Source: a bacterium (GTDB taxonomy: Bacteria > Patescibacteriota > Minisyncoccia > Phycocordibacterales > UBA6899). From it: 64,000 nucleotides of DNA. Numbering within the stretch: the first letter of the stretch is position 1; every line of letters starts with the position of its first letter. Positions 3,216 to 63,225 of the stretch are shown here, in pieces. The notes beneath the pieces are model-generated. The model was given only the letters and a program-made list of their open reading frames with translations, ran no database searches and was not told the origin of the DNA. Both the position numbers and the translations under genes were made by a program. Where the stretch lies: assembly GCA_043756865.1 (NCBI GenBank), contig JAYUQG010000014.1, forward strand, positions 2,349-66,348. Reading direction: 5' to 3'.

Positions 3216-3413
3216 GAGGTGAGAGTTAGCAATGTGTGGAGTCCCAAAACTTCATCATTCTCCTCGCTCCAAAGAAAAGAGCAAACAACTGTGCTGCGTG
3301 AGTGCTTTCATTTTGAACAGTCCTTCGCTCCAGAGGTGGGAGTTAACATTGTCGTCTGGAGTTCCAAAACTAGAACATTCTCCTCACTAAAAAGTACAGT
3401 GCTGGTGGCTGTG
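3167..3413 (+). repeat. imperfect tandem direct repeat (2 units of about 117-130 bp) duplicating the 3' tail of R1 copy 1
   Basis: unit a 3167..3283 and unit b 3284..3413 both start CTGCGTGAG.CCTTTCA....TCC.TCGCTCC.GAGGTG.GAGTTA..A.TGT...GGAGT.CCAAAACT..A.CATTCTCCTC.CT.AAAAG. Confidence 0.5.
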
Positions 3414-3429
3414 CTTTGTGTATTCTACT

Positions 3430-24100: not shown

Positions 24101-27100
24101 GGGTCGATACTCAGCAGCGACACAGGTGAAGCTCCGAATCCCGCACCATTACCGGGGAGTGCAGTATCGGGGACCAGTGCCCACGATGATGTCGAGGTGA
24201 GATATTCTATTTGATACCCCACTGTTCCATAGACCTCACTATCGCTAAAACGCAGATTTCCCCACACCGAACCAATTGTTTTAATATTAAAATCAATTGC
24301 TGAAGAATATATGGTTCCCGTAGTTGAGCCGTTGATGAGCATCACGGCATCTGTGGCCGTTGAGTGTACTCCTGAAAGCGTGTCGAGTTGGAACTGATCA
24401 CGTGTGGTTTGGTGCCACGTTGATACCACTACCGCCGTATCAACGGTGAGACTGCGCGCGGTGGACCACTCACCCCACTGGTTAGACCCGCTCGAATCCT
24501 TTGCTCGTACTCGCCACCAATACGTACTACCGTTTGTGAGGGCAGTTGCTGATTTGAACTGAATTTTGTCTCCTGAATTAAAGGGTGCCTTGTTTGCAGG
24601 GGTATCCACATTTTCAAAAAGATCGGGGTCTGCGAGTGAATCTGAGTCTATAACGGAAGTAGTAAATGTCGCTGAAAATGAAATCTGCACTTGGTAATCA
24701 AGGTCATTGACCTCCCCATCGGTCGCGGTGAATTGAAATGATGGAGTTGTGGTGCCCACCTTCTCAAACGAAAATGGCGCAGATTGGACTGTTACCCCCG
24801 GTGATGCGTTGGTCAAGACAAGCGGATAATTCACATAGGTATCAAGCGGTGTACCATCTGACTTCACCATCCTAAAACAATACCGCGTATTCGGTGCTGC
24901 CAGATTGTCCTGAACGACCCAATCCCATTCTCCGACTCCACCAATCGGAACTTGTGTCCGTGTAGTCGTGGAATTATTTTCTTCAGCGTAAGCCTCGGCC
25001 ACTGTAGAGGATGAAAGGAGGAGCGTCGTGAGCGTCGCCCCATCGGAAACTCCCGTGTTATTGAATCCCCGCCATAGTGCGGTTGAGGAAGCGAGCGGGG
25101 AAACATCACTCCAATTCAATGCGGACTCGCAAATGGGGTCACTTGAATACTGGAGCTTAAATGCCTGAACTCCCACAGTGGAGGTCGCATTCCCCACAGA
25201 CACATTCATACGCAGACGAATTTTGTCGGTGGGTTTTAGGCTATCAAGCGATGTTTCAATCGGAGTATTTTCCGCGAGATCAGACCCACCAGGAGGCCAA
25301 GGGTCTGTCGGAGTCAACAGATTTGCGTTATTGTAGACCCGATAAGAATCTTGTGTAAATACAGGAACCCCAGAAAGTCGTTTTCCAAATATTACCTCGA
25401 CGTACCGAGGAAGCTGGCTTTCCGTAGAAAAACCCGTTAGGTCTACTGAATGCACATGTGTTGTTGGTGCCGCCTGTACACCAATACGTCCGGGGGCGCT
25501 TTCAGACGACGCACCCGTTACCGCACCCGTCATGTCCGAGTACGTATGGTCAACAGCTCCACCCGTTCCCCCATACGTGCTTGATGCTTTCACAAACTTT
25601 CCATTGAGTGTGCCACCGATGTCAGAAATTCGTGACCAGCCCGCCGCGGGGTCATTGTCCCACATGGTTATCATGTAATTTGAAGTGCCCGTCGCGGTCG
25701 CAAGCTTTGCAAATAACATTTCCACGTTGGGTGGTTCGCTATTTACGAGTGGGGTATTTGTGGCCGTAAGTGTGTGTGTGTGGTTTTCAGCAGAAGGAAG
25801 CGGGGTCGACTGAGTCCCTCCGAGGCGTGAGCGATATCTCTGCGGTGAGACACCGACTGTTGAAGAACCAGTCATAGGATGGATGTGCGTGTTTGAACCT
25901 GTAGCGGTACCGGCAGTATTTTGACCAAACGGATAATATCCATCTTGTGGTGTGTATCGATTCCAACCGGTTGGCAATGAAGACGAGGCGATATCAAAAA
26001 GTGCAATAGCACCGGCGGGAATAGTTGCGGGTTCACCTGCACTATTTGCCTGAATGACACGCAGCTGTCGAGAAAGCGGAACCGTGCTGGTTGCCCCGAC
26101 GGATACAGAGAGAGTGTGTGCGTGGGATATACCCGCCAAGAGTGTATTCACTACTGAATTTTCTGTTACCCCCGTTGACCCTGTGTTGAAAACAGTTGCG
26201 GTGACTGAATGGGTGCTGGTGGGTACTCCTCCAAACCCCCCGTATGTAGACGACCCGAAAGGTAATCGTTCATAAAAGGGATCCGTCGTGAGACAGGACA
26301 CACACGTCCAAGTGGCAGGGATGGTGACATTGTCATCCCAAAAAAGCATCATCTTCCCTGCTGCATCTGACGCTATCTGCCACTTTCGCGCTTCCACAAA
26401 CGAGTCATCTTCCCCACCCATAGAAAGTGGGCCCATGAGATAAAGGTACGGTGAAACATCAGGAGCATCAAATGTATATGCAAAGTCAACCACTCCGCCC
26501 GCTTCCAACTTTGTCGGCCACGATGCAGTCATAAAGGTGTGTGCATCGTCGCCCCAAGCAAGCGTGGCATTCCCACGGTCAATCACGATAAAGTCGCCGG
26601 GGATGCGCTCGACAATGTTTCCCTCAAATGCCTCAATCGCGCGCACACGTATCTTCATCGGATAGTGCGCTAAGGGGAAGATGCGTGTTGGTCCCACACG
26701 TTCGATTACATAGGGTACATAATCACGTACTTCGAACGTATCGGTCACTTGGCTCGCGACATTCTCGTTCACATCGAGACGCACAAGTTTTGCTTTATAC
26801 GTTCCCGTTGCTGCCAGCGGTATGTCGTATGCGGCAGCATAGTCGGGAACATCTACTACATTGTTACCGTTGCACTTCCCCGATGCCGTGACGGGGACCT
26901 CCGTCTCAGTCCCTCCCGGTGTGGTCACCCACAGTTTAAGCGGTGCATCACAGATGGTATTTCCATTGTTCGAAAGTGCGGCCAGCGAAATATCGAGACG
27001 CTCACCGGGCAGGGAAATACTCTTCGCATAATTGATAGCTAACACACCCCAATAGAAATCGAACTCATCTGTGTACGTATCGCCCCCCTCTTCAATCTCA

Positions 27101-30100
27101 ATATGCAGTGTGTACTTGCCGGGGCGAACGGCTCCGGTGTCGTCTTTTAACTGGAGTGACCACTCCCCGCCCTCACCATACTTCACATCATACTCCGCAG
27201 GTTTGTCTCCAAAATGTGGGTGGCGCAGCATAATGCGTGCAACAGTAAATGACTGCACGCCGAGCAGCTTCCGCACACCCTGCATCAGGCCGCTTGATTG
27301 GCTCTTGTATTGAAATCGAAATGTCGGCTTTTGGTGTAACGAGAACTCACGCTCTTTGGAGAGTAGCGTATCGACATGCTCTTTATCTTTGCCATCATCA
27401 GTCACATCGAGTTTGCGATGCTCACCGGGAACCACAAACTCAGTCTCCCCAAGTTGTAGTGTCACAAGCGCAGCACCCGGGGCACGCGAAAGTGCAGCAC
27501 TCTCAAGCATACGCACGCCCGCCCGCCCCATACCGACACCCGCCTCCGAGAATGTTCCTGCGGGTATTGCCATGCCTAAAAACTGAGTCACACTTCCTGA
27601 AACAGCCCGGAGCGTAAAGCCAAGCGGAAACACTCCGCTCTTGGGAAGAAAGTGTGTGGCACCGGGGCTATTTCCCCGTCCATGACATGTTGATGAAGCA
27701 ATCATTGTCCCCTCTTCGTCATAGAGTCCAAATAGGACGGGCTCAGGTGTGGGAGCACACACGAGGGCAATGTGACTTGCATCAAATGGGGAACGATAAC
27801 TTCCACCCATAAGACTACGGGGTAGTATGCTCAATAAAGATTCGGGGGGGGTCATGAGTCCCCCAATCGGTTGAGTGTGCGCGTCCACGCGAAATGCCTC
27901 CGCACCATCCAGCGGTCCAGAGTTACACTGGTCGACAACAAAACTCGCTCCCGCGCGTCGACCGTCGATGGATTTTCGCGCGCCACTTGCACACAGTGCA
28001 GTGATGTCGGTACCATCGTTTCTCACTCCAACCGTAATCTTTCCAAGCGCGAGTCCAAAGAGCGATTCGGTGGTAGCAGAAGGGATTGGTGTCGGTGCTC
28101 CACCTTCACCTCCTACGAGTGTGAGTACTGCATCGCGGTCGAGGTCAACAAGTACACTGTCTGAAAGTGTTATCGGTCGACGCACAATCGAACCGAAAAT
28201 AGGGTCAATGGACTCAACCGTGCCGCCAACACCGATTGCGCCATGAACTGCCTCACTATCAAGCGCTGCAATAGCGAGCTCACGTTCGCCACCAATTCCT
28301 GGGAGTACGAAATGCTCCCCTGCATATCCCAACGGAACATAAACGGCAACGGGCGAAACGGCAATCACCGATGCGGTAATCGGTCCATCCGCATGCACAA
28401 TAGTGCTGGGTTGAATTCCAGAAAAGAGCGCACTCTCTCCCTGCTCCAGAGTAACTGATTGTTGGTCTTCAATTTCCACACGCACATGAGGAGCGAGGGC
28501 AAGTACATGGAGTGTCATGTCCAGTTGACTACCTCCAAACACTACGCCGCGTGGAGTTAGTGCCGTGGTGCGAAACGGAGTGAATTCATTCGAGCGCGAA
28601 GTTGCGAACTGATCTCCAAAATACACATATACACTCGACGTAGCTCCCGCAGATAGTTTGGGTACACGCACCCACGCAAGTCCACGCTGTTCTTCACTAT
28701 TAAATTCAGCAAGCCAATATGGAAGTTCTATCTTCCCACTTTCATCGACGAAACGAATATCGGAACCGGAAGCAGAAACATACTCCCAGAAGTCTGCGGA
28801 CATCCCCGCAAAATCAACAGGGATGGCAAACTCTCCGTCCGCGCTCACCGCACTGCTGTCCCATGTTATTGGTATGCGATGATTCCACGAACCACCCCAA
28901 TCAGTGTGGAGCAATCCGTACGCACCCGACTCTGCGGCTGCTTCGATTGCGAGATCCCCACGTGCATTGAGTGGCACATCCAGTGTGACGCGAAAGTACA
29001 TGGTCTGCCCCGGATTCAAAAGTACGGAGTCGGCGAGATATGACTCCGCACGAAGTGAGGATGGAATCAAGTCAACGGGCATTTCTGCAACCAAGAAATC
29101 AATCGCCTTTGTAAATATCCCGCTTTCGTCAGCAATGGCACCCCGTGTAATTGGTAAAGTCGTCCAACCATCGCGATAGCGCGTTTCTGTCTCAAGCCCG
29201 ACACCGACTCCTTTTGCAATACAATTTGTACCTTCGATATTCAGTGCGTCACATGTCGCACGCTCCCGCGTCTCCACGCAGCTATACGCATCCGATCCGG
29301 AGTCTCTCGTACTCTCGTTCTCCCAACCCGCTGCACAAAAATATCCCACGTCGTCATACTTCAGTGCGCTGCCCTGATAGGGAGTATTGTGTGACCAGCG
29401 CGACAAAGTGCGCACCGTTGCTCCCTCATCTTGAAAACGAAACTGTAATTTCAATACCTCCGCTTCGGTGCTCTCATTTGTCACGTTGACGTATGCATCC
29501 ATGGTGCCAAGTGCGTGGTACGTTTTTTTGTCGCTTTTTATGACAAGCTTCTGTCCCTCATGCGCCTCTCCATTGGTAAACAATATCGTTCCCTCTTCAG
29601 GCGTGACCAGTTGGTCGCGACGCGCCTTGCGTGCCTCAGCATCCCGCGCGGACAGTGTGCTCCTGATATTCGCACCCGAAAGCGCAAACTCTTCGGCAGA
29701 TGAGTTCAGTGTAGTGTCTTGATAACGCACGTTTACCCAGAGGCCGTCCACATACACCGCAGCATCCTCTTCACTTGCGCGGTCATACTCCAGCACAACC
29801 TTCAAGTCTGACAAATCATCCCACGTTGAAATATTTGGAAGTTCAAATTTGAGATACCCCGCACGTTTCGCGTTAGACAACTCCCCCCGAATCTCAGAAC
29901 TTCCGAGAAATTCCCAGCGACCTGCGAGATAGGCGCGCACAAGCACACGGTCATATTCCCCGCTGGAGTAAGCACCTCGTCCTGCGAGCGAGAGCTCGAG
30001 TGTTGCACCAGCAACTGCTTTACCCTCGAGTGTACCGCCGAGGCCAAACCCTACATACTCGGCGAGATGACATGTTTTTCCAAACGTACTGCAAAGGGAG

Positions 30101-30912
30101 ACCGAGTATGGGTCGGGTGACTGCGTCGACTCAGCAACCGCAGCAAGCGGTGTGCCCGACGCTTGAGTGCTTGATGCTGCATCAGCAGCGCTCACAGGTA
30201 GCGGGTTCTTTTCCAGAGATGGGTCAGGGCTCTGCACAACAGAGACTACTTTCTCTTCTGTCTCTATAAGTTCGGGGATAGGCGAGGAATCGCCCGAGGG
30301 TGCTGCGGCGACTTCGGGCACATCTTGCGCCAACACTTTTTCACCTGCAAGAAAACCTGAAAACATGTGGCGCACGCGCTGCATTAAAAATGCCTCGGGT
30401 GCGCCCTGAGGGGCCACAGTGTCCGCGGGAGTTACGGTGGGGGAAACTGACGGTTCTTCTGGTGTCAGGAGCGGCATGAAAGGATTCGGGGTCGAAACAC
30501 TTTCGTTCGGTATTATTTCGGAAGGAACCTCTGAAGGAGGCGGCGTGGTGTCTGCCGTATCGGGTGTGACTCCCTCCAGTGTGGGTACGTCTTCGCCCTC
30601 AGTAGTCGTACCTACTTCAAGTGAAGCTCCGAAGTATACATAGGCAGAATTCTCTCGGCTAAAATCTGCGAGCTCGGCGTCCATCGAGAGGTCTTGACCA
30701 AGAGAAAGTTCACCCCCCTCCCACCCTTCAGTGACAACATTCGACGGTGACACATACACATGGGCTTCTTTCTCCGCAAATACGAACTCTGAGAGAAACC
30801 AGAGGCCGAACACTACAGCACTAAGCGCGACAAAAGCCCGAAAACGCCTTCCTGTGTGCGAGGTGAAACGCCAATGAAACTGCTTTGTGTGGGTGCGCAA
30901 AAAATGAAACAT
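12172..30912 (-). CDS. giant (6246 aa) secreted adhesin-like protein: signal peptide, two DUF2341-like domains, at least three long super-repeats of beta-helix-like units, WxL-like C-terminus
   Basis: uninterrupted 18.7-kb ORF; signal peptide RFRAFVALSAVVFGLWFLSEFVFA; DUF2341-like segments (IRFVDESGKIELPYWLAEFNSEEQRGLAWVRVPKL and DLRFTDSSGTTSIPYWIESLTAAASSTVWVKVPAL); three copies of the YSQDxxAxDGxLxIxGxYxRTxGTDYWSxATDFDGTALG super-repeat; about 60-aa NxxGAFVxNSG... units; DNA 15.2-16.1 kb and 19.9-20.9 kb are clearly paralogous. Confidence 0.7.
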   Translation of the reverse strand: MFHFLRTHTKQFHWRFTSHTGRRFRAFVALSAVVFGLWFLSEFVFAEKEAHVYVSPSNVVTEGWEGGELSLGQDLSMDAELADFSRENSAYVYFGASLEVGTTTEGEDVPTLEGVTPDTADTTPPPSEVPSEIIPNESVSTPNPFMPLLTPEEPSVSPTVTPADTVAPQGAPEAFLMQRVRHMFSGFLAGEKVLAQDVPEVAAAPSGDSSPIPELIETEEKVVSVVQSPDPSLEKNPLPVSAADAASSTQASGTPLAAVAESTQSPDPYSVSLCSTFGKTCHLAEYVGFGLGGTLEGKAVAGATLELSLAGRGAYSSGEYDRVLVRAYLAGRWEFLGSSEIRGELSNAKRAGYLKFELPNISTWDDLSDLKVVLEYDRASEEDAAVYVDGLWVNVRYQDTTLNSSAEEFALSGANIRSTLSARDAEARKARRDQLVTPEEGTILFTNGEAHEGQKLVIKSDKKTYHALGTMDAYVNVTNESTEAEVLKLQFRFQDEGATVRTLSRWSHNTPYQGSALKYDDVGYFCAAGWENESTRDSGSDAYSCVETRERATCDALNIEGTNCIAKGVGVGLETETRYRDGWTTLPITRGAIADESGIFTKAIDFLVAEMPVDLIPSSLRAESYLADSVLLNPGQTMYFRVTLDVPLNARGDLAIEAAAESGAYGLLHTDWGGSWNHRIPITWDSSAVSADGEFAIPVDFAGMSADFWEYVSASGSDIRFVDESGKIELPYWLAEFNSEEQRGLAWVRVPKLSAGATSSVYVYFGDQFATSRSNEFTPFRTTALTPRGVVFGGSQLDMTLHVLALAPHVRVEIEDQQSVTLEQGESALFSGIQPSTIVHADGPITASVIAVSPVAVYVPLGYAGEHFVLPGIGGERELAIAALDSEAVHGAIGVGGTVESIDPIFGSIVRRPITLSDSVLVDLDRDAVLTLVGGEGGAPTPIPSATTESLFGLALGKITVGVRNDGTDITALCASGARKSIDGRRAGASFVVDQCNSGPLDGAEAFRVDAHTQPIGGLMTPPESLLSILPRSLMGGSYRSPFDASHIALVCAPTPEPVLFGLYDEEGTMIASSTCHGRGNSPGATHFLPKSGVFPLGFTLRAVSGSVTQFLGMAIPAGTFSEAGVGMGRAGVRMLESAALSRAPGAALVTLQLGETEFVVPGEHRKLDVTDDGKDKEHVDTLLSKEREFSLHQKPTFRFQYKSQSSGLMQGVRKLLGVQSFTVARIMLRHPHFGDKPAEYDVKYGEGGEWSLQLKDDTGAVRPGKYTLHIEIEEGGDTYTDEFDFYWGVLAINYAKSISLPGERLDISLAALSNNGNTICDAPLKLWVTTPGGTETEVPVTASGKCNGNNVVDVPDYAAAYDIPLAATGTYKAKLVRLDVNENVASQVTDTFEVRDYVPYVIERVGPTRIFPLAHYPMKIRVRAIEAFEGNIVERIPGDFIVIDRGNATLAWGDDAHTFMTASWPTKLEAGGVVDFAYTFDAPDVSPYLYLMGPLSMGGEDDSFVEARKWQIASDAAGKMMLFWDDNVTIPATWTCVSCLTTDPFYERLPFGSSTYGGFGGVPTSTHSVTATVFNTGSTGVTENSVVNTLLAGISHAHTLSVSVGATSTVPLSRQLRVIQANSAGEPATIPAGAIALFDIASSSLPTGWNRYTPQDGYYPFGQNTAGTATGSNTHIHPMTGSSTVGVSPQRYRSRLGGTQSTPLPSAENHTHTLTATNTPLVNSEPPNVEMLFAKLATATGTSNYMITMWDNDPAAGWSRISDIGGTLNGKFVKASSTYGGTGGAVDHTYSDMTGAVTGASSESAPGRIGVQAAPTTHVHSVDLTGFSTESQLPRYVEVIFGKRLSGVPVFTQDSYRVYNNANLLTPTDPWPPGGSDLAENTPIETSLDSLKPTDKIRLRMNVSVGNATSTVGVQAFKLQYSSDPICESALNWSDVSPLASSTALWRGFNNTGVSDGATLTTLLLSSSTVAEAYAEENNSTTTRTQVPIGGVGEWDWVVQDNLAAPNTRYCFRMVKSDGTPLDTYVNYPLVLTNASPGVTVQSAPFSFEKVGTTTPSFQFTATDGEVNDLDYQVQISFSATFTTSVIDSDSLADPDLFENVDTPANKAPFNSGDKIQFKSATALTNGSTYWWRVRAKDSSGSNQWGEWSTARSLTVDTAVVVSTWHQTTRDQFQLDTLSGVHSTATDAVMLINGSTTGTIYSSAIDFNIKTIGSVWGNLRFSDSEVYGTVGYQIEYLTSTSSWALVPDTALPGNGAGFGASPVSLLSIDPTVYATIRIRANLTNTTGTPVLFDWTIDWGFTVGTPTLYLPFSNAKLNTTTPTFEWTAADPQGDPIEYEIQWSTTSAFTSSTTRNSGVNLGFQNIQNATDTTPFNSSDRIRFTIQPGDALIASSTYFWRVRGRDPTGANTYSFYSETRSFTVDLSITIATWFQTVDDQFRTDTLSSLRLTGTGSTTVATTTDEVMLAYGEGTVQTPRFRIFDGITLGGEQTALSVGATIQWVIVKSSPLISQYILGTLGSDRDTNFQVYESGAWANLQETGTAAPSPQRRSFDVAYETVSGRAIAVTCDSSPTAGYRIWTGSAWSATGTVNLSFATNCEWVRLASHPISNEIIGLFRNTGSMYEAQVWNATTSSWGNATVLGSMRDIAHEGMAVEYENSGTDAVVVASNGINASFVWKSWNGASWTATATVALGDDFESGNLRRNKTNDDMALCYIDQDNDIGVIRWTGSTNTWAAFTELEITGQSFNGRPVDCQYETISGRTNYIMVPYADTTGTRWRFWDGVLYQGERNMASTGGTTFPTSFTNQLVRTSASGTMLGMFFDHVGTDYEYAELVGSSTWENHQTIEDTASVTASPFGEPFYMAPQSPLSVGTIIGTPIDYDDGIAPAWQRVKWDATTPGETTFMTQVQYQNASGTWALIPDTLIPGNSVGTTTSPISITALDTTLYNVIRLKGTLTCMSGVCPTLNDWTVEWAAGVRISGTARLHDLTSTVTSGTVAVAVNGSLQVGRTGTIANGDWFIDNVTVFPGNTLTVFISGANDFNEAVTVAKYTGPGDMGGMRISERWVTIGSASTTGQSISLTDLAKYDNSVSGSEDIFYDIDAGNDFNNCVVGSCLDSSIHVFSNTFRPATSTSETINTWDMRVNGFLFADTNTIKVSGSWGNLGGFTSNASTVIFNGTSSTRTIDSTGAATSTFYNVTFGESGNTATWNLSSAFVATGTVAMSFGTTSQGTNDITLQGDLTIGASGTFIKGTATTTFSGTAARIWTDNTAAKQDLGNVVVNGTAKTLTLGSSVKATNIVIGADDTLSAGSAYTLTVLENWNNTGTFTSLTGTVDFAATTTGKTINQGVSNFYNTTFSGVGGTWIWQNTNATTTNDFAITGVGTTTLPSGTLAIGGSFSNTAGAFVHNSGVVRFTSTASGKNVRANGSLWNDILFAGAGGAWTFQDTNATTVGTFYITAGTPTLPSGTLEAGNTFDNQSGAFVANGGTLRMTSVLSGRIVRLSGSTLANFFVANAGGFTIADANATATGDVIFAAGTTTLPTANFAIGGNFSATGAFVSGSGAVHFNPASGTKTVSAGPSTFATVNVLATPTATISITGNATATAAFTLISGGFTQATATALAVGGTFTNNVGGASTTWTGTTLTLYSGTSYTLNTKTTGADSYATLRLALGTNVRMWNSSSNTYQFTPTSSMYSQDDSALDGSLFIGGNYIRTTGTDYWSFATDFDGTALGGSGRQVNVRFAPTATSSFTTNATLQIIGSTTASTTIDRATTGSFVVALSDATLNANYYQFRNMGARGLELAGTTTVTSLSYGDFEVATNGGSGITIASTTVDQNTGIQLFTVRFATTTAILAFNVTEIGTPAGSSFIRFRQHYGNIAGESNDNDPGGNPGYIRWDDSIFVISISGTVYSDAGVTPMSTTTCDNVTPNVRVRVNGLGNFAAPCSSANGTYTVPGVTFIGDTVMTVYLDTNGGRKATLVTRSASADLTGINLYQDRVIVRHEDTAALGIEHMNAYDAGNDSDISYSAATTGPNTLAVNPETEFWVWNAKTFIPNGNITLNSGGSGNNWDGTFHVDNNAIFTAQGNESHSVGGRFALDAGATFTAASSTFTFTATTTGKLLVGITPINFWNLVFNGSGGEWSVNQTTNTGNDLTVTQGTLVGANSMTISGVNMTGAGTVAMTGGSVTFANGGTFGGNTNWSFNNLNFGNGAGGTTTKTGSSTISIATIMTVTAGHTLNAGVPSAWNLTGGATPLVITGTLNPEVSVFRFSSTANTTVAAANYYRLYLAPSGAGGPTYSLSAGTFTVRNSLTVGDGVNSGTTTVTTNDPIVNVEGDLIIRSSATLVGSDSAAFNIYRDWYNQGTYTPSAGTVSFVATTTGRTITPSTSAFYNAAFNAAIGGWTILGNATTTNNFSITQVSSFVMASGTTLEVRGVFTNAVGGSATTWTGSTLYLNSGVTSAMNTKALGGDRYETLQVGGSTKISMWASSATTTAVAATGSLYSQNHASTSGELYIWGSYARTAGTDYWSYATDFDGTALGVSSRQANVRFATASSISISGTGALEILGTNTASTSLSIQTLGTYALNISGGSTTMKYVRFRGVDGNGLNFSGTPVVNLMDDVDFELGVAAGSMITVAGATIDANPLKIFSRNYFGTSTGVGSGFNVKATGVSASIWRFAGTPTSLGVLAGEAFDSDPGGDPGYIVWDDSAANITISGNVYGDEGITPVGGPTCDGSTQTVRLRVQGAGAYTSACNSTTGAFSISSVVFNPGDVLTLYLDTNSSTTAANVTVDPATNIANMHLYRDRVIVRHEGGTALSIANMNQYDSDQDTDIRFKATTGAPDTLVLPSNTTLIVWTSKVFAPAGDVTVHGNALGSDRDGTVKLYASSTWSAAGTQTHTLAGSFYAASGASVAPANSTFFFNASTTGKFVSASSSLTFYNMTMSGSGGTWNIGGVGTTSNNLTFSAGTTTLPSGTLAVGGTFDNSGGVFLHNSGVVKFTSTATGKNIRALTSAFANLEFDGVGGGWSFLDTNATATGAVLLKNGTTTLPTGVLAIGTDLNNQSGGVTANGGTIRMTATSSGRIIRMNGSSLANLFIADVGTFTFTDTNATATGDVIFASGTSTLPNAAFTVGGSFIATGTIAVATTSLVTFNPTSGTSLVALGNSTLTGVYVAGAPAATVNISASATTTGSMTIASGNFIQASSSALAVGGIFTNNLGGASTTWSGSRLALNSGTSLNMNSKTAGGDLYGIIRLGTNTIVRNWNSSAAAYELGTGTSVYAQDHAAVDGTLHIYGAYTRTTGTDYWSYATDFDGTALGGSSRQVNVRFGPSAAAAFSNASTLQMLGISTASTTVDRATTGNYGLSLSSSYINAQYYQFRNMNTAGLDMSGTTTITSLSNGDFELGLSGGSMITIASTTIDQNASGQIFYVRFATTTAIEGANVSRIGTTTNAITFASEYGNMALESRDNDGNDGCGSIRWTDSSCLFSDQRTYRWRNDNGAEGVPSTEWYDQNWSKRKRVRINNNATSSEVNIEVKFNVVYDSDMQSDFDDLRFTDSSGTTSIPYWIESLTAAASSTVWVKVPALPASGMADIFMYYGHATVAGGTSGTSTFKFFDDFEDGSMSEYSGNTTLFEQSTAFNYERTRGIDASLGNEASGKTTDGIGQMSAGVGRDTTIRFFQYIDIAAGGSNEPCFLFAIQSPITLHQNYAVCLTPFSGTDKVVIAKNAANNGRNDGATQLATTSVTYATGWYEASINWLSNNQINVTVYDSAGSVFATTSATDSSYTSGGIGFAYWGQHGGWDIPSAREYIATAPGAVFGLEQADSGATWKTAENTTLANQLINENLRLRVTVRNSGAPINNNNFRLQVAPKSVSPNCESVSGGSYVDVPTTSGAGCGSGAACMKTSTQFSDKSSTTQLLSIPTGQTFTYGQILEDPSNQTGNVSLASGEFTEVEYNFQMTAFASQDAYCFRTTNSGSALDNYTKVAELRILHAPVLSNFSFNNNASIALTEGATTTIFATSTVTDYNGYADLSFASSTFFRSGLSSSTACTADNNNCYQISTSSCSFINCSGNSCTVSCTADMYYFADPTDFGSTFVAENWQALIDVWDTSNSHARASSSQDVYTLKGLTIPSSLNYGSITVGADTGAANSTTTVTNTGNTILNLLLSGSPMTAASSTIAVNQQKYATSTFTYSGCAGCNLLATTSNPYNIGVTKPTSTNPFFKDVYWGLGVPNGTAATTHSGTNYFIAN

Positions 30913-33379: not shown

Positions 33380-33895
33380 TTAAGAACCCGAGTCTACCTT
33401 CTCGACATGCATACGCATTTTATTGTTTGCATGACCCTTGAGTGGTAGATGGAGTACGAGTACGCCGTCTTTGACCTTTGCTTGCGCAGCCTGTGCGTCT
33501 ACTTCTTGAGGAAGAATAATCTGGCGGAAAAATTTACCCCAAGCACATTCTTCGAGAGTAAATCCGTCGTGCTCTTCGCTTGCGTGCTGCACTCCTTGCG
33601 AGATTGCAACAACACCCTCGATTTTCACCTGAATCAAGTCTTCGGGGCGATGTGAGCTGCCGGAAATAGTAATGACATCATTGTCACCCTCTATGGACAC
33701 ATCAAGATCTTTGATTTCCGCACCGGGAACCTGAGCATAGATGATAATTTCTGTATCACTTTGCTTCACATCGACGGGGAGTTGCGAGACGCCACTCGGC
33801 ACCTCAGATTTAGCTGGTAGGCTTGCCGAGGAGACCGTATGGTCGTCCGAGACTCCCACGCCCTTGCCCTTGAGCTTTTGTAAAAAAGAACTCAT
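33380..33895 (-). CDS. Hsp20/alpha-crystallin family small heat-shock protein
   Basis: alpha-crystallin domain DVKQSDTEIIIYAQVPGAEIKDLDVSIEGDNDVITISG...GKFFRQIILPQEVDAQAAQAKVKDGVLVLHLPL. Confidence 0.6.
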   Translation of the reverse strand: MSSFLQKLKGKGVGVSDDHTVSSASLPAKSEVPSGVSQLPVDVKQSDTEIIIYAQVPGAEIKDLDVSIEGDNDVITISGSSHRPEDLIQVKIEGVVAISQGVQHASEEHDGFTLEECAWGKFFRQIILPQEVDAQAAQAKVKDGVLVLHLPLKGHANNKMRMHVEKVDSGS

Positions 33896-33992
33896 AGATT
33901 AAAAGTACAAATTAATTGTTAAGCAGCGCTTCCTCAAAACGCACAACGGTAGAGTTATATACATTATACGCGCATACGTGAGTGGCGTGCAA

Positions 33993-34340
33993 TCAAGTTG
34001 TGGAGAACAAGTGGATACTGCCCAGCAACTCAGTAAAGTTGCCTGCAATGGTCACGCGATTGACCGTGCGGGTAATCACTCCGTGTTCAATGAGGAAACC
34101 TTCCGCCCCGACAGAGTAGTCGCCAGTCGCGAGGTTAACGCCGTCGCCCATAATGCCGATGACGAGTAGTCCGTACGCAATATTTCGAATAAGTCCATCA
34201 CGCAGGATGACACTTGTGTGATCACCGCTTAGTACCCGCGGAGCAAAACAGACGTAAGTCTGTTTTTTATGACTGACAAAAACGTGTTGCCGTGCGTTGC
34301 TAGATGAATTTTGCGCAGTGCGCGATTGCCTGTACGTCAC
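33993..34340 (-). pseudogene. remnant of a TldD/PmbA-family metalloprotease gene (C-terminal roughly 75 aa only)
   Basis: AYGLLVIGIMGDGVNLATGDYSVGAEGFLIEHGVITRTVNRVTIAGNFTELLGSI matches the conserved C-terminus of PmbA/TldD ([49 protein letters not shown]) but stops early and lacks the N-terminal roughly 370 aa; its 5' side overlaps the collagen-like gene. Confidence 0.5.
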
Positions 34341-40582: not shown

Positions 40583-41710
40583 CTAGAAAACTGGTGTACA
40601 AATGTACGTGAGTATATTTGCATAGTCAGTAGCCGCCTCCTGAAGCGCTCCAATCTGTATGCGGTAAGCCACCGTGGTCGTACCGATACCAATCGTTGTC
40701 CCATTTACTGGTGCGGAGTGGTACATAACGAGAAGCGGAGCTAGAGGTGCGAAGTTGCCTGTATAGAGTGTTCCTCCAGTAAATGGGTTTCCCGGTAACG
40801 TAGAGTCATCACTGGTGACACCAAAGTGACCATAGGTATTTTCTGAGCCAAGAATACTCGTGGGGGCAGACCACGCAGCAGGTGCTGCGGGGACGCCGTT
40901 TGCAAAGTAGTCAATATCGGCACCCGTATTTGACGTCAATGCTGCATTTGTCACGACAGTTACTGAATAGCCATTTTGCGCATTGGTTGATACCGATAGG
41001 AGCTGAGCACCAATTTCGTCATCAGCAACATCCAATGTACCGAATCCTATACCTGTAGCAGTGGTGGTTGTTGAAGTAGTTTGGCCACCAGTAAGTACGG
41101 TACTTGATGCAACTCCGGTAATTGTGAAGGTAAGCGATGTTGGCACACTCGCGCTCATGGTTACACCCTGAAGGATGGCCACGCGAGTATCTCCATTATG
41201 GGTCTGAGTACCTGCGATACGGATGACGTACGAACCAACAACGTTGGGGTTCGTAATACGGTTATTTGTAGCAGGAAGGGATATTGTTCCTAAGGGAATA
41301 GTATCACCAGCACAAACAGTGAGGGTGATTATATCCGGGTTAGAAGTGAATGCAACGGTTGCTTCATCTGTCCCAGCGCCACAGGCTCCAACAACAGCGA
41401 GACCTGTTTCACCGACAAAGTCTGCCGCAACAAGTCCAGCAATAGCAAAGAGACTTGTTGTTGGGTCGAGCTCTATGGTAATTGTTTGCCCTGCAGTAAC
41501 TGCCGCTGCTGATGTCCACAAAAATGTGTGATTCGTCGCGGTGGAGGTAGCGGAGCTGACGATCGTGTCGGAAACACTTGTCAGTGCCGCTGCTGATGCA
41601 ACATTAATAAAAGAAGGCAAACCCACTGCCCACGACAGCGTGGCTGCGATAAGAAACACTCCAAGCTGCTTTGCTCGTGAGAGTTTTTTGAATGAACGCG
41701 TATAGCTCAT
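40583..41710 (-). CDS. secreted protein with C-terminal WxL-like domain
   Basis: ATG at 41708-41710 (MSYTRSFKKLSRAKQLGVFLIAATLSWAVG signal peptide); C-terminal roughly 190 aa (IGFGTLDVADDEIGAQLLSVSTNAQNGYSVTVVTN...YANILTYICTPVF) align with the C-terminus of the 1790-aa protein (FGTLGVGVSEIGAHTLHVNTNATDGYQVLVSE...YETMIRYIVVPTF). Confidence 0.5.
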   Translation of the reverse strand: MSYTRSFKKLSRAKQLGVFLIAATLSWAVGLPSFINVASAAALTSVSDTIVSSATSTATNHTFLWTSAAAVTAGQTITIELDPTTSLFAIAGLVAADFVGETGLAVVGACGAGTDEATVAFTSNPDIITLTVCAGDTIPLGTISLPATNNRITNPNVVGSYVIRIAGTQTHNGDTRVAILQGVTMSASVPTSLTFTITGVASSTVLTGGQTTSTTTTATGIGFGTLDVADDEIGAQLLSVSTNAQNGYSVTVVTNAALTSNTGADIDYFANGVPAAPAAWSAPTSILGSENTYGHFGVTSDDSTLPGNPFTGGTLYTGNFAPLAPLLVMYHSAPVNGTTIGIGTTTVAYRIQIGALQEAATDYANILTYICTPVF

Positions 41711-41915
41711 AAAGAACTTTGTATAAAACGAATAATGGCTGTGAGAGAACTGCTGCATGTGTGTACGGTCTATATTTTTGATGTCTCTCCATTAGTGGGA
41801 TTAGAGAAACATAAAGACAACGCACCCCCGGACAGTGGACCACCAAGTCAGCGAATGACAAGATAATTCACCTAACCATTATTATACAATGAATAACGCA
41901 TAACGGGTGGATAAA

Positions 41916-42049
41916 CAGTGCGTAGGTGTGGATAAGCGCACCCATACTGTGGATACAGTTCAAGAAATATGCTTATTTACGAACAAACACAAAGTTTTTT
42001 TGCAAAATTCACTCGCAGGCATGTGGATAGCGTGGATAACCACGCTATA
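41916..42049 (+). promoter_or_regulatory. cluster of five same-strand DnaA-box-like 9-mers (TGTGGATAA and 1-mismatch variants)
   Basis: GGTGGATAA 41916-24, TGTGGATAA 41937-45 (perfect), TGTGGATAC 41958-66, TGTGGATAG 42032-40, CGTGGATAA 42041-49; AT-rich stretch CATTATTATACAATGAATAACGCATAAC just upstream. Confidence 0.4.
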
Positions 42050-42092
42050 ACTGCAACATGTTTGTGTTTGTCCTCTGTTTCCCCTGCTAGTA

Positions 42093-43403
42093 CTAAGGTA
42101 TGACGATATCCATTGCTCCGTTCTTTTTTATAACCATTTGGTATTCCCGCTCTGCCTTAAACACCGAAACAAAATACCAGCCAATCAGAAAAACACAAAC
42201 GAGGAGGACGAGCACAGAGCCGATAAACACACTGTAGCGTTTGATAAATCTAAAGTATGAAAATCGTCGTGCGGAGTGTCCCCTGAGCGAGCGGAGCTCT
42301 GCACCACCTTTTGCGAGTGGGCCATTAAGCACACGAAGTGTGAGGGCGGGTATTGCCTGTGCACTCGAATGTTTTTTGCCATCTACCCTTTGCTCCCCTT
42401 CTATTCGTGCATGCTCTAGCTGAATAGCCTCTGCAATGTAGCGGCGCAGCGCCCTACGGGTGAACCAGAAGAAAAAAGTCAGCGTGGTGAAAATGATGAG
42501 CAGGGGCACCCAAGGTACAACCCAAAAATGCACGTCCTTATATGCAGTCTTTGTCTTATCGTTACCGTAAGTAAGCACGGCGACGGCCTTGTAACGACCT
42601 ATGTCAAAAAAGTTTGACCCACCCTTCCATTCAAACGAAAATATACGAGATGCTCCCGGTAGTACCGTGCCGAATCGGTGCTCCTGATCAACAACAATTC
42701 GTCCACGTTCGCGCCCAAACATGTTAAAAATGATGATTTCGCCCTCGGGGTTAACGTGTACGTTGCCCGTATTTGTGAAACGCAAATCAAATCCTGCTTC
42801 TTGTTTCTGCACAAGGCCATGCTTGGGAAAAAGTCCGGTAATTTCTCCTTGTTCAATGATATTTCCCGATATCTTTACATAGAGAAGTGAGGAAACAAGT
42901 GAACTAAATGAGACATTACCTCCCCCACTTTGTGGGGAGGGGCCTATGAGTAACGCAGCATAGTGTCCACCCGGTTCGGCATTCATGGGAATTGTTATGG
43001 TAAAAGGTATGCGCACTTCTCCACCAGAAGGAACAAAAAAATCCTTATCGGAGAGCGTAACCCATGTCGCAAGTTCATGCGATGTTGGCTCATCTCTTGT
43101 CCCCGATGGAGCAAATACCGTCGCGCCGATTTGTCCATCAGCGCTGAAATTTTCGACAGTGGAACGGATTACCAGCTCGGTTTCCCCTCCATTGTGTAAA
43201 ATCACCGTACTTGACCACACTACTCCCCGCGCGAGGCCCAGCTGAAACAGCGGAGGTGAAACTGTCATCGTAACCCTCTCTGCGTGTTGCGGTGACTCCT
43301 CGGCAAAAAGCATATTCGGGAACAACATCCCAATAAGCAACAAGCAGGGAGTAAGGGCGCTGAGCACCGTGGAGAAAGTATTACGGAACGTTACTCCCGT
43401 CAT
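42093..43403 (-). CDS. CscA-like (DUF916/DUF3324-type) cell-surface protein with C-terminal TM anchor
   Basis: signal peptide; MTVSPPLFQ motif; C-terminal FWVVPWVPLLIIFTTLTFFFWF TM plus long basic tail; SD AAGAGGAAA 8 nt before the ATG; only 2 nt after the upstream paralog. Confidence 0.5.
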   Translation of the reverse strand: MTGVTFRNTFSTVLSALTPCLLLIGMLFPNMLFAEESPQHAERVTMTVSPPLFQLGLARGVVWSSTVILHNGGETELVIRSTVENFSADGQIGATVFAPSGTRDEPTSHELATWVTLSDKDFFVPSGGEVRIPFTITIPMNAEPGGHYAALLIGPSPQSGGGNVSFSSLVSSLLYVKISGNIIEQGEITGLFPKHGLVQKQEAGFDLRFTNTGNVHVNPEGEIIIFNMFGRERGRIVVDQEHRFGTVLPGASRIFSFEWKGGSNFFDIGRYKAVAVLTYGNDKTKTAYKDVHFWVVPWVPLLIIFTTLTFFFWFTRRALRRYIAEAIQLEHARIEGEQRVDGKKHSSAQAIPALTLRVLNGPLAKGGAELRSLRGHSARRFSYFRFIKRYSVFIGSVLVLLVCVFLIGWYFVSVFKAEREYQMVIKKNGAMDIVIP

Positions 43404-50199: not shown

Positions 50200-51953
50200 G
50201 GCAGTACGGAATTATCAGCACCACTATCGTCTTCACCTCGTGGGGTAGTGCTCGAACTTCCACCAATAGGAAGTGCGGCCTGATCACCCTGTGTTATCGG
50301 AGTCTCCGGCGGCGCACGATACGGCCCTTCGGGAAGCCGCGAGGACTCGCTGGTAAGGTCTACTTTTTTGCCCGTGGCCACATCATAACTCATCAGTCGT
50401 GCACGACCCTCTTGGTCTCGCTCTTCCCATGTAATTGCAAATCTAGGGTTCTCACTTTTCACTCCATCACTTGAAAGTTTGGTGCGTGTTTTCTCTACGA
50501 TGCTGTATGCATACACGACCCAGTTTTCCCCTTCGTGTGACTGCCACGTTACGATGTCGCCATGAAGTGACGGAAACATATCGTGCTCAGTATTCTCGGT
50601 AAGTCGCACCACCTCCCACTCGGGGCCTACGTTCATTAGTCGATTTGCGAGAGGTAAATGTTCACCTGCTAAGGGTGAAGAGTGCACACGACGGGTGGCC
50701 AAAAATACTTCCCAGTTTTCATCAACCCACCCTTGCCAAACGATATGGTTACCAGCAACCTTTGGATTAAAATTACTCTCGCGCGAGTCAGTGACTTGCA
50801 TCACACGTGGCGGTTCGCTTCCGGAAGTATCGGCATAGAAAATCTGCCATCGTCCACCTTTCATACCCTGCCAAACGAAGTGCACGCCCGAAATGTCTTG
50901 CGCTGGGAACGCATCATCCCACTCATTCTCAGTAAGCTGCATGCGCACTCCACCCTTGTCGATAAAAATTTCTTTGTCCCCTCCTGCTCCTTCGACGGCC
51001 TCCACCGTAACCATCGTCGCCTTTGGAGTGCCCGCTGCGCCCTTCTGCGTTCCATCTTTTATGCAGTAGTAGCCCGTATGTTCAAATGAAATACAGCCAC
51101 TCAAAAATTCTGCCTCGACTTCGCGTTTGAGTTCTGCGCGAAGTTGCGCTTCACGATAAAGTGCTGCACCTTCATCGGGTAGATGGACGTTGTCAGGATT
51201 CTCGGGCACTGCTTCCCCATCACCCACGAACTCGTCAGTTGTTGTCGCGTCACTGTCATTTTGTATATCTGGAGACACCTCGTCTGTTGTGGTTGCGCCC
51301 CCACCTCCGTCCTCTGTGTTTGCAACATCGGAAACCGTGGAGGTGGCCTCACTGTCAAACGCTCCTCCGCCACCCGTAGTATCCACGGGTGGTAATACTT
51401 CTTCGGTGCTCGACGCAACAGCCCGCTCGTCTGCGGTTGGCGAGGGAGGCTCGGTGACTTCTTCGGCGGGATGAACTTCAGATGGTTCATCTGGAGGTGC
51501 TGTTGGCAGCTCATCAGGAATATCAGAATGAGCAGGCTGAGCATCTTCGGAAGTGGATTGAGGAACAGTTTCCTCACTGATGGAGAGCGGAGCTTCTGTC
51601 GCAGATACGGGTGTGTCACTTGCGGGTGCAACCGATTCGTCCGCCGCATACAACGGAAGTAGCGGCTGAAGAAAAATCATCGGCACGAGGAGTATCGACG
51701 CCACTTTTCCGAGCAAGCCGGTTGCAAGGGTGAGGCCAAACGTGGAACTCAGTGCGTGCCGACGCTTATCCTCAATTGCCACTTTGATGGTGCGGCGAAG
51801 CGCACTACCTTTTAGTTGTATCGTGGTGTGTGCTTTGTGGGGAATGTTCACCGCGCGAAGTACGGTGCCTCGAGAAACTTTGGCATGTGGGGCGAGACGC
51901 ACAATATGTGTTGAATCATCGTACTTCATGGTGATATGTTCGGGCTCCAACAC
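50196..51953 (-). CDS. bitopic membrane protein: N-terminal cytoplasmic domain, TM, acidic Pro/Thr-rich linker, C-terminal beta-propeller-like repeats
   Basis: TM LGKVASILLVPMIFLQPLLPLYA; repeats HFVWQGMKGGRWQIFYAD / HIVWQGWVDENWEVFLAT / DIVTWQSHEGENWVVYAYS; domain assignment uncertain. Confidence 0.4.
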   Translation of the reverse strand: MLEPEHITMKYDDSTHIVRLAPHAKVSRGTVLRAVNIPHKAHTTIQLKGSALRRTIKVAIEDKRRHALSSTFGLTLATGLLGKVASILLVPMIFLQPLLPLYAADESVAPASDTPVSATEAPLSISEETVPQSTSEDAQPAHSDIPDELPTAPPDEPSEVHPAEEVTEPPSPTADERAVASSTEEVLPPVDTTGGGGAFDSEATSTVSDVANTEDGGGGATTTDEVSPDIQNDSDATTTDEFVGDGEAVPENPDNVHLPDEGAALYREAQLRAELKREVEAEFLSGCISFEHTGYYCIKDGTQKGAAGTPKATMVTVEAVEGAGGDKEIFIDKGGVRMQLTENEWDDAFPAQDISGVHFVWQGMKGGRWQIFYADTSGSEPPRVMQVTDSRESNFNPKVAGNHIVWQGWVDENWEVFLATRRVHSSPLAGEHLPLANRLMNVGPEWEVVRLTENTEHDMFPSLHGDIVTWQSHEGENWVVYAYSIVEKTRTKLSSDGVKSENPRFAITWEERDQEGRARLMSYDVATGKKVDLTSESSRLPEGPYRAPPETPITQGDQAALPIGGSSSTTPRGEDDSGADNSVLP

Positions 51954-52392
51954 TCTTTGCGGTCTGATTAGGGCGATACGTATGCACTACTTCGGTTTGT
52001 GTTTGCTTACGGAGCGATACACCGAGCGAGTCAGCGAGCATGTAACAAAGGAATATGGCAAAAAGCCCAAGTACTATAAGTAGCAGGTAAAGCACGCTGC
52101 GGTATGCAGTAAGGACGCGCGAAGGAAACACCCCCTCAATGACTCGGTCCAAAATGACTTCTTTGTGAGGATCTGCAGGCAACGTATCGTCTTGCTTGGG
52201 TACCTTCAAGAGGTAAGCTTCCATTGCCTCCGGTGTGGTCATCCAGACCACATTTGCGTACACTTGCTTCCCTTCAATTTTTCCCTTACGTATAAGCTGG
52301 CCGATATAGTCTGCCGAGTACCCAAACTGCTCACTCGCTTCCTTGAGGGTGATATAACCGTCTTGTTTCTCAATCGGGGTAGTCATATTCAA
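51916..52392 (-). CDS. membrane-anchored helix-turn-helix DNA-binding protein
   Basis: N-terminal HTH YITLKEASEQFGYSADYIGQLIRKGKIEG (excisionase/MerR-type); C-terminal TM SVLYLLLIVLGLFAIFLCYML; overlaps the downstream gene by 38 nt. Confidence 0.45.
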   Translation of the reverse strand: MNMTTPIEKQDGYITLKEASEQFGYSADYIGQLIRKGKIEGKQVYANVVWMTTPEAMEAYLLKVPKQDDTLPADPHKEVILDRVIEGVFPSRVLTAYRSVLYLLLIVLGLFAIFLCYMLADSLGVSLRKQTQTEVVHTYRPNQTAKSVGARTYHHEVR

Positions 52393-52420
52393 TTATTCCT
52401 CTGTACTGTGTATAAGTCTC

Positions 52421-52538
52421 GAGGGTCGATATTTCTATTTTACATTGAAAAATAAGGAAATAATAAAGTTATCCCCAGACAACCAACACGTTATACTGTC
52501 AATTGTCCACAGATTTCTCGACGGTCGATATTTTCTAT
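52421..52538. promoter_or_regulatory. pair of 21/22-bp direct repeats with palindromic core TCGACGGTCGA in a divergent promoter region
   Basis: CTCGAGGGTCGATATTTCTAT (52418-52438) and CTCGACGGTCGATATTTTCTAT (52517-52538); candidate operator for the adjacent HTH protein. Confidence 0.35.
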
Positions 52539-60276: not shown

Positions 60277-60494
60277 GGTTGTGGGTCATCGCATCTTAGG
60301 CGACAGAGCAAAAGAGTCAATGTCGAAACAGGGTGATTATACATCGCTTCCCACTACATGGGGAAGGCACGCAACACAAGAAACGCAACAATAGTGTTTG
60401 AGCCTTTAATAGGCAATGTGTCAATATTTTTGACCGCTATTCGAACGTTAAACTTTCTTATAATATAGAGAGTAATTAATCGCATTTACTTATC

Positions 60495-62542: not shown

Positions 62543-62631
62543 GTGTATCAAATCTTCTCCTGCTCATCCTCTGGAAAAACAAAACCCGAATAGTCCTTGG
62601 ATGCTTCATTTATAAGCACATATTTGCATAG

Positions 62632-62645
62632 CGAACGATTGTTCG
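62632..62645 (+). promoter_or_regulatory. LexA operator (Cheo-type SOS box CGAACGATTGTTCG)
   Basis: perfect palindrome CGAAC-GATT-GTTCG 14 nt upstream of the lexA ATG. Confidence 0.6.
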
Positions 62646-62658
62646 CTATCCTCTACTA

Positions 62659-63225
62659 ATGGACGAACACCACAAAAAACACATACTGCAGTTCCACGAA
62701 AAACATCAACGGATGCCCTCGTACAGTGAACTCATGGGGCAAACAGGTTTCACCTCACGTGCCTCAATCTTTAAGCTCATTCGTCGACTTACGGAAGAGC
62801 GGTTCCTCACAAAAGACGCACACGGGCATATTGCCCCTGGTAGTACGTGGGGAGGCCTGCGCGTACTTGGGTTGGTCGAGGCAGGCTTCGCATCCCCCGC
62901 CGAAGAAGACCGCGGAGACAGACTTTCGCTTGATGAATTTTTGATACCCGACCGAGACGCGTCATACATGCTCCGTGTCAAAGGCGACTCAATGAAAGAC
63001 GCGGGAATTGTTGACGGAGACATGGTCATTGTAGAGCGCGGAGCACAAGCCAAGGTCGGGTCAATCGTCATTGCCGAAGTAGATGGCGGCTGGACGATGA
63101 AATATTATCGCACCAAAGGAGGCAAGCCATATCTTGAGGCAGCAAATAGCGCATATAAACCCATCTACCCCACCCAAGATTTAACCATCGCAGCGGTTGT
63201 GCGCGCTGTTGTTCGTAAGTACTAG
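62659..63225 (+). CDS. lexA: LexA repressor
   Basis: N-terminal wHTH; S24 peptidase motifs VKGDSMKDAGI (Ser nucleophile) and GDMVIVER...K; 188 aa. Confidence 0.8.
   Translation: MDEHHKKHILQFHEKHQRMPSYSELMGQTGFTSRASIFKLIRRLTEERFLTKDAHGHIAPGSTWGGLRVLGLVEAGFASPAEEDRGDRLSLDEFLIPDRDASYMLRVKGDSMKDAGIVDGDMVIVERGAQAKVGSIVIAEVDGGWTMKYYRTKGGKPYLEAANSAYKPIYPTQDLTIAAVVRAVVRKY

Follow-up and report, generated by a model that had tools for sequence, protein, structure and literature searches.

The 64-kb window analyzed here, which is the whole stretch of 64,000 nt taken from contig JAYUQG010000014.1, carries a surface-protein operon on its minus strand. In the gap between the gene of a 436-aa membrane-anchored protein and that of a 375-aa secreted protein, this operon contains a cluster of five DnaA-box-like 9-mers. 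The cluster is the regulator-binding part of the promoter of the 375-aa gene and not a replication origin. Its boxes are distributed non-randomly and stand at fixed distances from a -10 hexamer, and about 40 of 53 species keep the resulting box-plus-promoter module in front of genes of the same family. The recurrence of the module in dozens of distant Patescibacteria, the bacteria of the Candidate Phyla Radiation (CPR), suggests at the level of sequence that DnaA, or a protein of the same DNA specificity, may control the surface-protein locus. With moderate confidence, we infer DnaA to be the binder and the promoter to be DnaA-dependent and probably activated, both the sign of the regulation and the transcription start being predicted.

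The box array and its promoter

A scan of the window for TGTGGATAA with at most one mismatch located five sites on one strand between 41906 and 42039, a span of 134 bp (Table 1). The preliminary description of this DNA, made from the letters of the sequence, had listed the same one perfect and four single-mismatch 9-mers in one orientation, and their positions were confirmed. The coding strand is the minus strand, on which the sequence of the boxes is TTATCCAC(A), and the one perfect and four single-mismatch sites match the 9-mer consensus TTATNCACA. The sites at 41906, 41927 and 41948 follow each other at intervals of exactly 21 bp. At -49, the conserved anchor position, stands the perfect box, while the 8/9 boxes at -70 and -28 lie in helical phase with it (distances are given from the start of a box to the start of the -10 hexamer). 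The remaining two boxes, at 42022 and 42031, abut directly, as had been described.

To compare the cluster with chance, the core of the boxes and the whole 9-mer were counted separately. The 7-mer core GTGGATA occurred 14 times in 64 kb, five of them inside the 134-bp stretch, and the other nine compare with a uniform expectation of 7.8. When the window was simulated 300 times with a first-order Markov model, the maximum number of same-strand sites per 134 bp was one in 227 runs and two in 73, compared to the five observed. The earlier claim of a box density far above chance was thus borne out.

Beside the array lies an AT-rich stretch of 28 nt (41877-41904, 75% A+T). The preliminary description had pointed it out next to the boxes, and it does exist, but it is the TATAAT -10 hexamer plus spacer rather than an unwinding element. 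No -35 match was found 16-18 nt upstream of this TATAAT, and a two-hexamer sigma-70 scan returned no promoter on the minus strand because the -35 is absent. The -10 was assigned by conservation across relatives and not by the sigma-70 scan; in about 30 loci the distance between the boxes and a TATAAT or TATACT was constant. A conserved pentamer lies in the predicted region of the transcription start, and it was kept as yAGGTG in 8 of 9 aligned leaders. The predicted leader that follows contains a further motif conserved across many species, and no Shine-Dalgarno sequence was visible in it. No consensus secondary structure of the leader was found, nor were any Rfam families found in the window.

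The gene behind this promoter had been described as one of 391 aa. The corresponding open reading frame (ORF), 40583-41758, uses an in-frame ATG further upstream, and the signal peptide begins at Met17. The true start is almost certainly the ATG at 41710, which gives a product of 375 aa with a signal peptide, and a gene call on an identical contig independently gives 375 aa. The suggestion of a DnaA-regulated promoter was upheld as the best-supported reading, with a promoter module in place; the product is probably 16 residues shorter than had been assumed.

An oriC-like DnaA assembly region had also been proposed. A chromosomal or plasmid replication origin would place DnaA boxes beside an AT-rich unwinding element, and a same-orientation box cluster does adjoin the 28-nt stretch. 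However, the cumulative GC skew falls steadily through 40-44 kb, all long ORFs from 759 to 60276 lie on the minus strand, and the GC-skew analysis that the preliminary description had recommended gave no switch at 41.9 kb when it was run on the window. No AT-rich repeats were found, and the AT-rich stretch belongs, as -10 and spacer, to a promoter that dozens of species share. Moreover, many homologous sites consist of a single box tied to a -10, and the site itself lies inside a co-directional operon. No DnaA homologue was detected in the window or in 81 loci by tblastn with domain IV of the Escherichia coli and Bacillus subtilis DnaA proteins. There was also no DnaA in the 3 kb beyond the window end, where lexA-like, dinB-like and nuclease genes are located. 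The origin reading was rejected on the grounds of skew, strand, gene content and comparison, and is hardly credible.

At E. coli oriC, arrays of low-affinity DnaA-ATP sites are nucleated from R1 and R4. The present array resembles them in that a high-affinity anchor is followed by weaker 9-mers of the same orientation at a period of about 10-11 bp, and the flanks, GTTATCCACA(G), are alike. It differs in having no unwinding element, origin context or skew switch, and in ending at the -10. Gene orientation in the window switches only once, from minus to plus, at approximately 60277-60494, where GC and AT skew turn positive. No DnaA-box-like 9-mers occur in this gap at about 60.3 kb, which is followed by 3.5 kb of sequence.

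Conservation and geometry of the module in relatives

The comparison set consisted of 80 Patescibacteria loci from species-representative genomes, collected via the neighboring DUF916-like gene. Full-length homologues of the 375-aa protein numbered 54 in these loci, with identities of 33-57%. In an unbiased k-mer enrichment of the 500-nt upstream regions, the top 8-mers TTATCCAC and TATCCACA were present in 33 of 54 regions compared to 1.9 expected, and overlapping k-mers extended them to GTTATCCACA. A perfect 9/9 box, TTATCCACA, was found at most 300 nt before the start codon in 33 of 53 regions, and seven more regions had an 8/9 box, while about 0.12 perfect boxes were expected. The box density was 2.0 per kb in the upstream regions and 0.028 per kb in ORF DNA, the latter being equal to the random expectation.

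Given the core TATCCAC, T1 was present in 39 of 44 boxes, A9 in 35 and a 5' G in 33, as in GTTATCCACA. The agreement of T1 and A9, at positions that had not been selected for, indicated that the DnaA consensus is completed. The mismatches of the 8/9 boxes in the 53 regions fell mostly at positions 9, 5, and 3, which accords with the relaxed DnaA-box consensus TTATNCACA (PMC4447404). De novo, the 53 orthologous regions gave the consensus GTTATCCACA, which is identical to the universal DnaA box in each of its nine positions.

These counts also bear on whether the resemblance to the DnaA box could be due to chance or base composition. One-mismatch 9-mers are indeed common (22 in the whole window versus 14.8 expected). 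But neither the five boxes, against a simulated maximum of two, nor the perfect boxes of the orthologous regions agree with such an explanation, which is already refuted and retains next to no probability.

The position of the boxes relative to the promoter was then compared. The strong box stood 48-50 nt before TATAAT/TATACT in 14 promoters as the nearest box and in 20 in all, 38-42 nt before it in 12, and 28 nt before it in three. Extra same-orientation box-like 9-mers were found at +10/11, +21/22, +32/33, and +53/54 from the anchor, corresponding to a phase of about 10.5 bp, and the weak spacer 9-mer of the window had its equivalent in relatives in an element, TTTTCmACA, located at -17 and usually ending about 8 nt before the -10. 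The number of boxes varied from one to five, while their position relative to the -10 was kept within 1-2 nt in three helical-phase classes. At least nine orthologous promoters had one perfect box and no in-phase 9-mer of 6/9 or better. Forward-box promoters were usually devoid of a -35, and the array extended to the -35 position.

The array of the window has counterparts among these promoters. The -28 box position is also used in L008, L010, and L027, and the -70 box in L015 and in the closest relative, L082, whose DUF916-like protein is 69% identical. In L082 the boxes are located at -70, -49, and -39, and a degenerate abutting pair, TTTTCCACG-CAATCCACA, at -151/-142 compares with the pair at -153/-144 in the window. 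In one clade (L035, L047, L053, L054 (9343), L055 (9322), L057, and L060), an inverted box, CTGTGGATAAG, is found upstream of the surface-protein gene. There it lies 6-7 nt upstream of a genuine -35 (TTGAAA/TTGTAA) with a spacer of 17-18 nt to the -10, which indicates that the site works in either orientation.

The module was not restricted to the 375-aa gene. It is present at the promoter of the hsp20 gene in the window (Table 1), and the hsp20 promoters of L049 and L059 have a perfect box at -51 and -41; in many loci hsp20 comes after the surface-protein cluster. It also precedes the paralogues of the 448-aa (p448) and 473-aa (p473) genes, as well as the first gene of the operon in L054, L055, L060, L203, and L204. 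Nearly all intergenic boxes in the 0.86 Mb sampled belonged to promoters of the surface-protein locus, the sample being heavily biased to this locus. The only module-like match outside the locus was TTGTCCACA, located 39 nt before a TATAAT ahead of a lexA-like gene (L025, 12417); it may be due to chance, as about four chance matches are expected in the scan.

A further proposal was that the cluster titrates DnaA. Such a DnaA sink, like datA or the B. subtilis clusters, would titrate or inactivate DnaA to tune initiation, and its position at a promoter would be incidental. The E. coli datA locus serves DnaA titration and DnaA-ATP hydrolysis. It likewise has about five DnaA boxes outside oriC, but in the relatives studied here the position relative to the promoter is conserved and the number of boxes is not. 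Five boxes per 134 bp are comparable to known titration clusters (PMC3245932), and the distal abutting pair at -144/-153 is unneeded for a simple promoter. On the other hand, single-box promoters recur among the relatives, and the module is repeated at several promoters of the locus. Selection on box position points to transcription control rather than titration, so a pure titration role is not favored and is improbable.

The distal pair is overlapped by a perfect palindrome (Table 1), which is nested in an 11-nt long-range inverted repeat (41983-41993 / 42061-42071). The RNA fold of this hairpin region reached -35.9 kcal/mol (z = -3.15), and L082, the closest relative, does not share the palindrome, which may possibly form a hairpin where the upstream operon ends.

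Table 1. Coordinates of the box array, its promoter and the associated genes in the window.
Feature	Position	Strand	Plus-strand reading	Remarks
Anchor box TTATCCACA, perfect	41927..41935	-	TGTGGATAA	start 49 nt upstream of -10 start; conserved anchor position
Box TTATCCACC, 8/9	41906..41914	-	GGTGGATAA	28 nt upstream of -10 start; overlaps would-be -35 position
Box GTATCCACA, 8/9	41948..41956	-	TGTGGATAC	70 nt upstream of -10 start; 21 bp from anchor box
Distal box CTATCCACA, 8/9	42022..42030	-	TGTGGATAG	144 nt upstream of -10 start
Distal box TTATCCACG, 8/9	42031..42039	-	CGTGGATAA	153 nt upstream of -10 start; abuts 42022..42030 box
Weak box-like 9-mer TTATTCATT, 6/9	41888..41896	-		spacer beside -10
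-10 hexamer TATAAT	41881..41886	-		within the AT-rich stretch
AGGTG	41869..41873	-		conserved, 7-8 nt after -10; predicted transcription start region
Predicted 5' leader	41711..41868	-		about 160 nt
Leader motif GCCATTATTCG	41729-41739	-		about 20-30 nt ahead of start codon
Perfect palindrome ATAGCGTGG-ATAA-CCACGCTAT	42027..42048			9-nt arms; overlaps distal boxes
Regulated gene	40583..41710	-		375-aa secreted Thr/Ala/Gly-rich surface protein
Upstream gene	42093..43403	-		436-aa DUF916/WxLIP-like membrane-anchored protein
hsp20 promoter module	33963..34018	-		GTATCCACT 34010-34018 at -50; TTCTCCACA 33999-34007 at -39; TATAAT 33963-33968
hsp20 gene	33380-33895	-
First operon gene	51916-52392	-		158 aa; N-terminal HTH_17/excisionase-like motif (sub-threshold), C-terminal membrane helix

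DnaA and a locus-encoded protein as candidate binders

In the proposed mechanism, domain IV of DnaA would bind the high-affinity anchor box at -49, and the ATP form of DnaA would then extend cooperatively over the phased weaker boxes toward the -10. An anchor followed by phased weak sites is the mode of DnaA-ATP oligomerization. The array of DnaA would aid RNA polymerase at the -35-less promoter and lead to activation, as at B. subtilis sda, with repression by occlusion as the alternative sign. Activation is favored because the forward-box promoters are devoid of a -35 and the array reaches the -35 position. The single-box promoters and the inverted-box clade fit a monomer binder that recognizes one 9-mer. 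The promoters of the surface-protein locus and of the adjacent hsp20, which share the module, would form a DnaA-linked regulon.

Outside oriC, DnaA was previously reported to act as an activator or a repressor at box arrays; sda is activated via a seven-box array, while rpoH is repressed (PMC4447404, PMC8203912, PMC3245932). The present array is similar to sda and other non-oriC DnaA-box clusters of B. subtilis in having several TTATNCACA boxes in an intergenic promoter region, with strong boxes beside weaker, cooperatively bound ones, and, by inference, in its transcriptional control (PMC4447404, PMC3245932). It differs from them in its target, a secreted surface-protein locus plus hsp20 of a CPR bacterium, in the fixed distance of 28, 39, or 49 nt from the anchor to the -10, with phased boxes up to a -35-less promoter, and in the conservation of the module across very distant species; DnaA binding is putative here. 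Promoters controlled by DnaA boxes are thus already known, and what is new is the target, the stereotyped geometry and the unusually deep conservation.

Head-to-tail perfect boxes at 10-12 bp are common in metagenomes, a scan of which gave at least 120 such loci. A dnaA gene was nearby in 16 of the 120 loci listed, and these 16 look like Firmicutes, Actinobacteria and similar bacteria. There were no surface-protein genes and no Patescibacteria oriC among the tandem-box loci listed. A literature search on DnaA boxes in Patescibacteria found nothing beyond a remark on the origin of Peregrinibacteria.

Several points weigh against DnaA as the binder. The box-bearing promoters all lie in or beside one locus, which is the signature of a local regulator, although the sampled DNA was locus-biased. 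The weak -17 element (TTTTCAACA, TTGTCAACA) is often without the C at box position 6. That the DnaA of this lineage recognizes TTATCCACA is presumed from the near-universal conservation of the DnaA box. Furthermore, at the head of the locus stands the gene of a conserved, membrane-anchored HTH_17-like protein, with a box in its own promoter, and regulators of the PhoB/OmpR and BldC/Xis types characteristically use phased direct repeats in place of a -35 (PMC5859096).

The same cis-acting module could be bound by a transcription factor other than DnaA with a coinciding site, as the preliminary description had considered for GTGGATA. This is a live rival, given that the locus encodes such a conserved membrane-anchored protein, and is less favored than DnaA; we regard it as possible but somewhat doubtful. 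The likeliest candidate would be the 158-aa product of the first operon gene, acting in a ToxR-type or BldC/Xis-type mode on head-to-tail repeats and regulating its own promoter. Alternatively, a PhoB/OmpR-type response regulator encoded elsewhere may be responsible.

The 158-aa protein matched Pfam HTH_17, a helix-turn-helix (HTH) family, over the whole domain (E = 7e-4, 20.2 bits), and its best match in PDB was the HTH protein AM32. Its gene overlaps the next ORF (585 aa). In L060 both form one protein of 796 aa, and in some species the HTH protein is fused to a large extracellular part. In five of the five other loci with a visible operon start, those in which the module precedes the first gene, an HTH-plus-transmembrane protein comes first, and its promoter has TTATCCACA or TTGTCCACA located 30-39 nt before the -10. 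In AT-rich lineages a small MerR/BldC-like gene lies within the locus, and the targets found all belong to this one locus.

The repeats themselves are also of the kind expected of such regulators. Pho boxes, the sites of PhoB, are variable-number direct repeats which replace the -35. Direct repeats in variable number and helical phase, able to replace the -35, likewise match BldC/Xis, as does the small MerR/HTH_17-like protein encoded in the locus (PMC5859096). Head-to-tail repeats in helical phase were present here at +10/11, +21/22, and +32/33. However, BldC repeats have a 9-bp unit, AATTNNNN(C); in the present arrays a 9-mer DnaA box recurs at 10-11 bp, and single-box promoters are common. 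The HTH protein here is also membrane-anchored, and its domain match lies below the Pfam threshold of 27 bits.

Further evidence stands against a binder other than DnaA. A coincidence would be needed, as none of the nine positions of the de novo consensus departs from the universal DnaA box, and GTTATCCACA shares the 5' G that flanks E. coli R1 and R4. A DnaA of the usual specificity would bind the perfect boxes anyway. No classical regulator gene was found among the 36 proteins of the window in Pfam scans, except for a LexA-like protein and the sub-threshold HTH_17 match, and no response regulator gene was found in the window. The many single-box promoters are ill-suited to a tandem-dimer binder; at least nine orthologous promoters lack the two repeats per site of BldC/Xis or PhoB/OmpR operators.

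In addition, the operon-start promoters carry a separate palindrome, which as a candidate operator suits the HTH protein of the locus better. In relatives this palindrome reads ATCTCG-N5-CGAGAT; in the operon-start promoters of L203, L204, and L054 it follows the -10. In the window it reads AAATATCGACCNTCGAGA and occurs twice on the minus strand, at 52534-52516 and 52434-52417, where it could be an operator or a 5' mRNA hairpin. If the HTH protein acted on this palindrome, the boxes would be free for DnaA. Both copies in the window read AAATATCGACC[G/C]TCGAGA and are internally palindromic, and the copy at 52417-52434 comes directly after a TAAAAT -10 (52437-52442). The two weaker DnaA-like 9-mers that had been noted beside these operator-like repeats do exist, near 52469 and 52503; they are 8/9 matches only and are reversed on the gene strand, pointing away from the operon.

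Genomic setting and biological meaning

The window comes from a CPR bacterium of the Paceibacteria type. Candidatus Paceibacterota, Lloydbacteria, Kaiserbacteria and similar Patescibacteria have homologues of the 436-aa protein, and some of these homologues carry PF06030, the WxL-interacting-protein domain. In its C-terminal half, the 375-aa protein is similar to the C-terminus of the 1790-aa protein that the same operon encodes. The 375-aa protein had been labeled WxL-like, but no WxL domain was matched in it by a Pfam scan; the label is supported only faintly, by matches of the neighboring 436-aa and 448-aa proteins to PF06030 and PF11797 (E = 0.02-0.13, sub-threshold). In these faint matches, and in the clustering of secreted and membrane-anchored proteins, the locus resembles the WxL/WxLIP (DUF916) loci of Firmicutes, from which it differs by the lack of a detectable WxL domain in the 375-aa protein. 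We know of no DnaA-box promoters in Firmicutes WxL loci, and a literature search found none; nothing was found on WxL-like loci in CPR bacteria either.

Genes for very large secreted or surface proteins dominate the window. After a single ORF of 6246 aa (12172-30912, minus strand) come genes whose products have fibronectin-III, cohesin, dockerin and collagen-repeat domains, and dockerin, cohesin and FGE-sulfatase proteins are encoded in the window. A tandem repeat at 3169-3420, with a unit of about 117-120 nt in at least two copies that are 72-79% identical, is located in a 519-bp gap upstream of a 362-aa gene and had no Rfam match. The LexA-like gene (62659-63225, plus strand) encodes a winged-helix N-terminus and Peptidase_S24. 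It is preceded, at approximately 62631-62646, by GAACGATTGTTCG, a Gram-positive-type SOS box, and is followed beyond the window end by a gene for a DinB/IMS-family polymerase (L206).

Gene regulation in CPR/Patescibacteria is almost unknown. These bacteria are mostly uncultured, have few recognizable transcription factors and need contact with the surface of a host. The module described here is recognizable from sequence alone and precedes the same gene family in dozens of species, with protein identities of only 33-57%. It predicts a promoter, a transcription start, a small regulon of the surface locus plus hsp20, and two candidate regulators. We tentatively put forward the wider view that across Patescibacteria (Paceibacteria and at least some ABY1-type lineages) DnaA may be a conserved master regulator of the main surface-protein locus and the neighboring hsp20, acting through an anchor box in three phases and a filament on weak boxes that would replace the -35. 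If this is true, the initiator would couple replication readiness to the building of the surface and attachment apparatus in episymbionts with tiny genomes and very few transcription factors. If DnaA binds, the module would be an unusually deep, conserved case of the initiator controlling the transcription of cell-envelope genes. If the binder is the membrane-anchored HTH protein instead, its site would mimic a DnaA box, which would raise the question of cross-talk with replication control.

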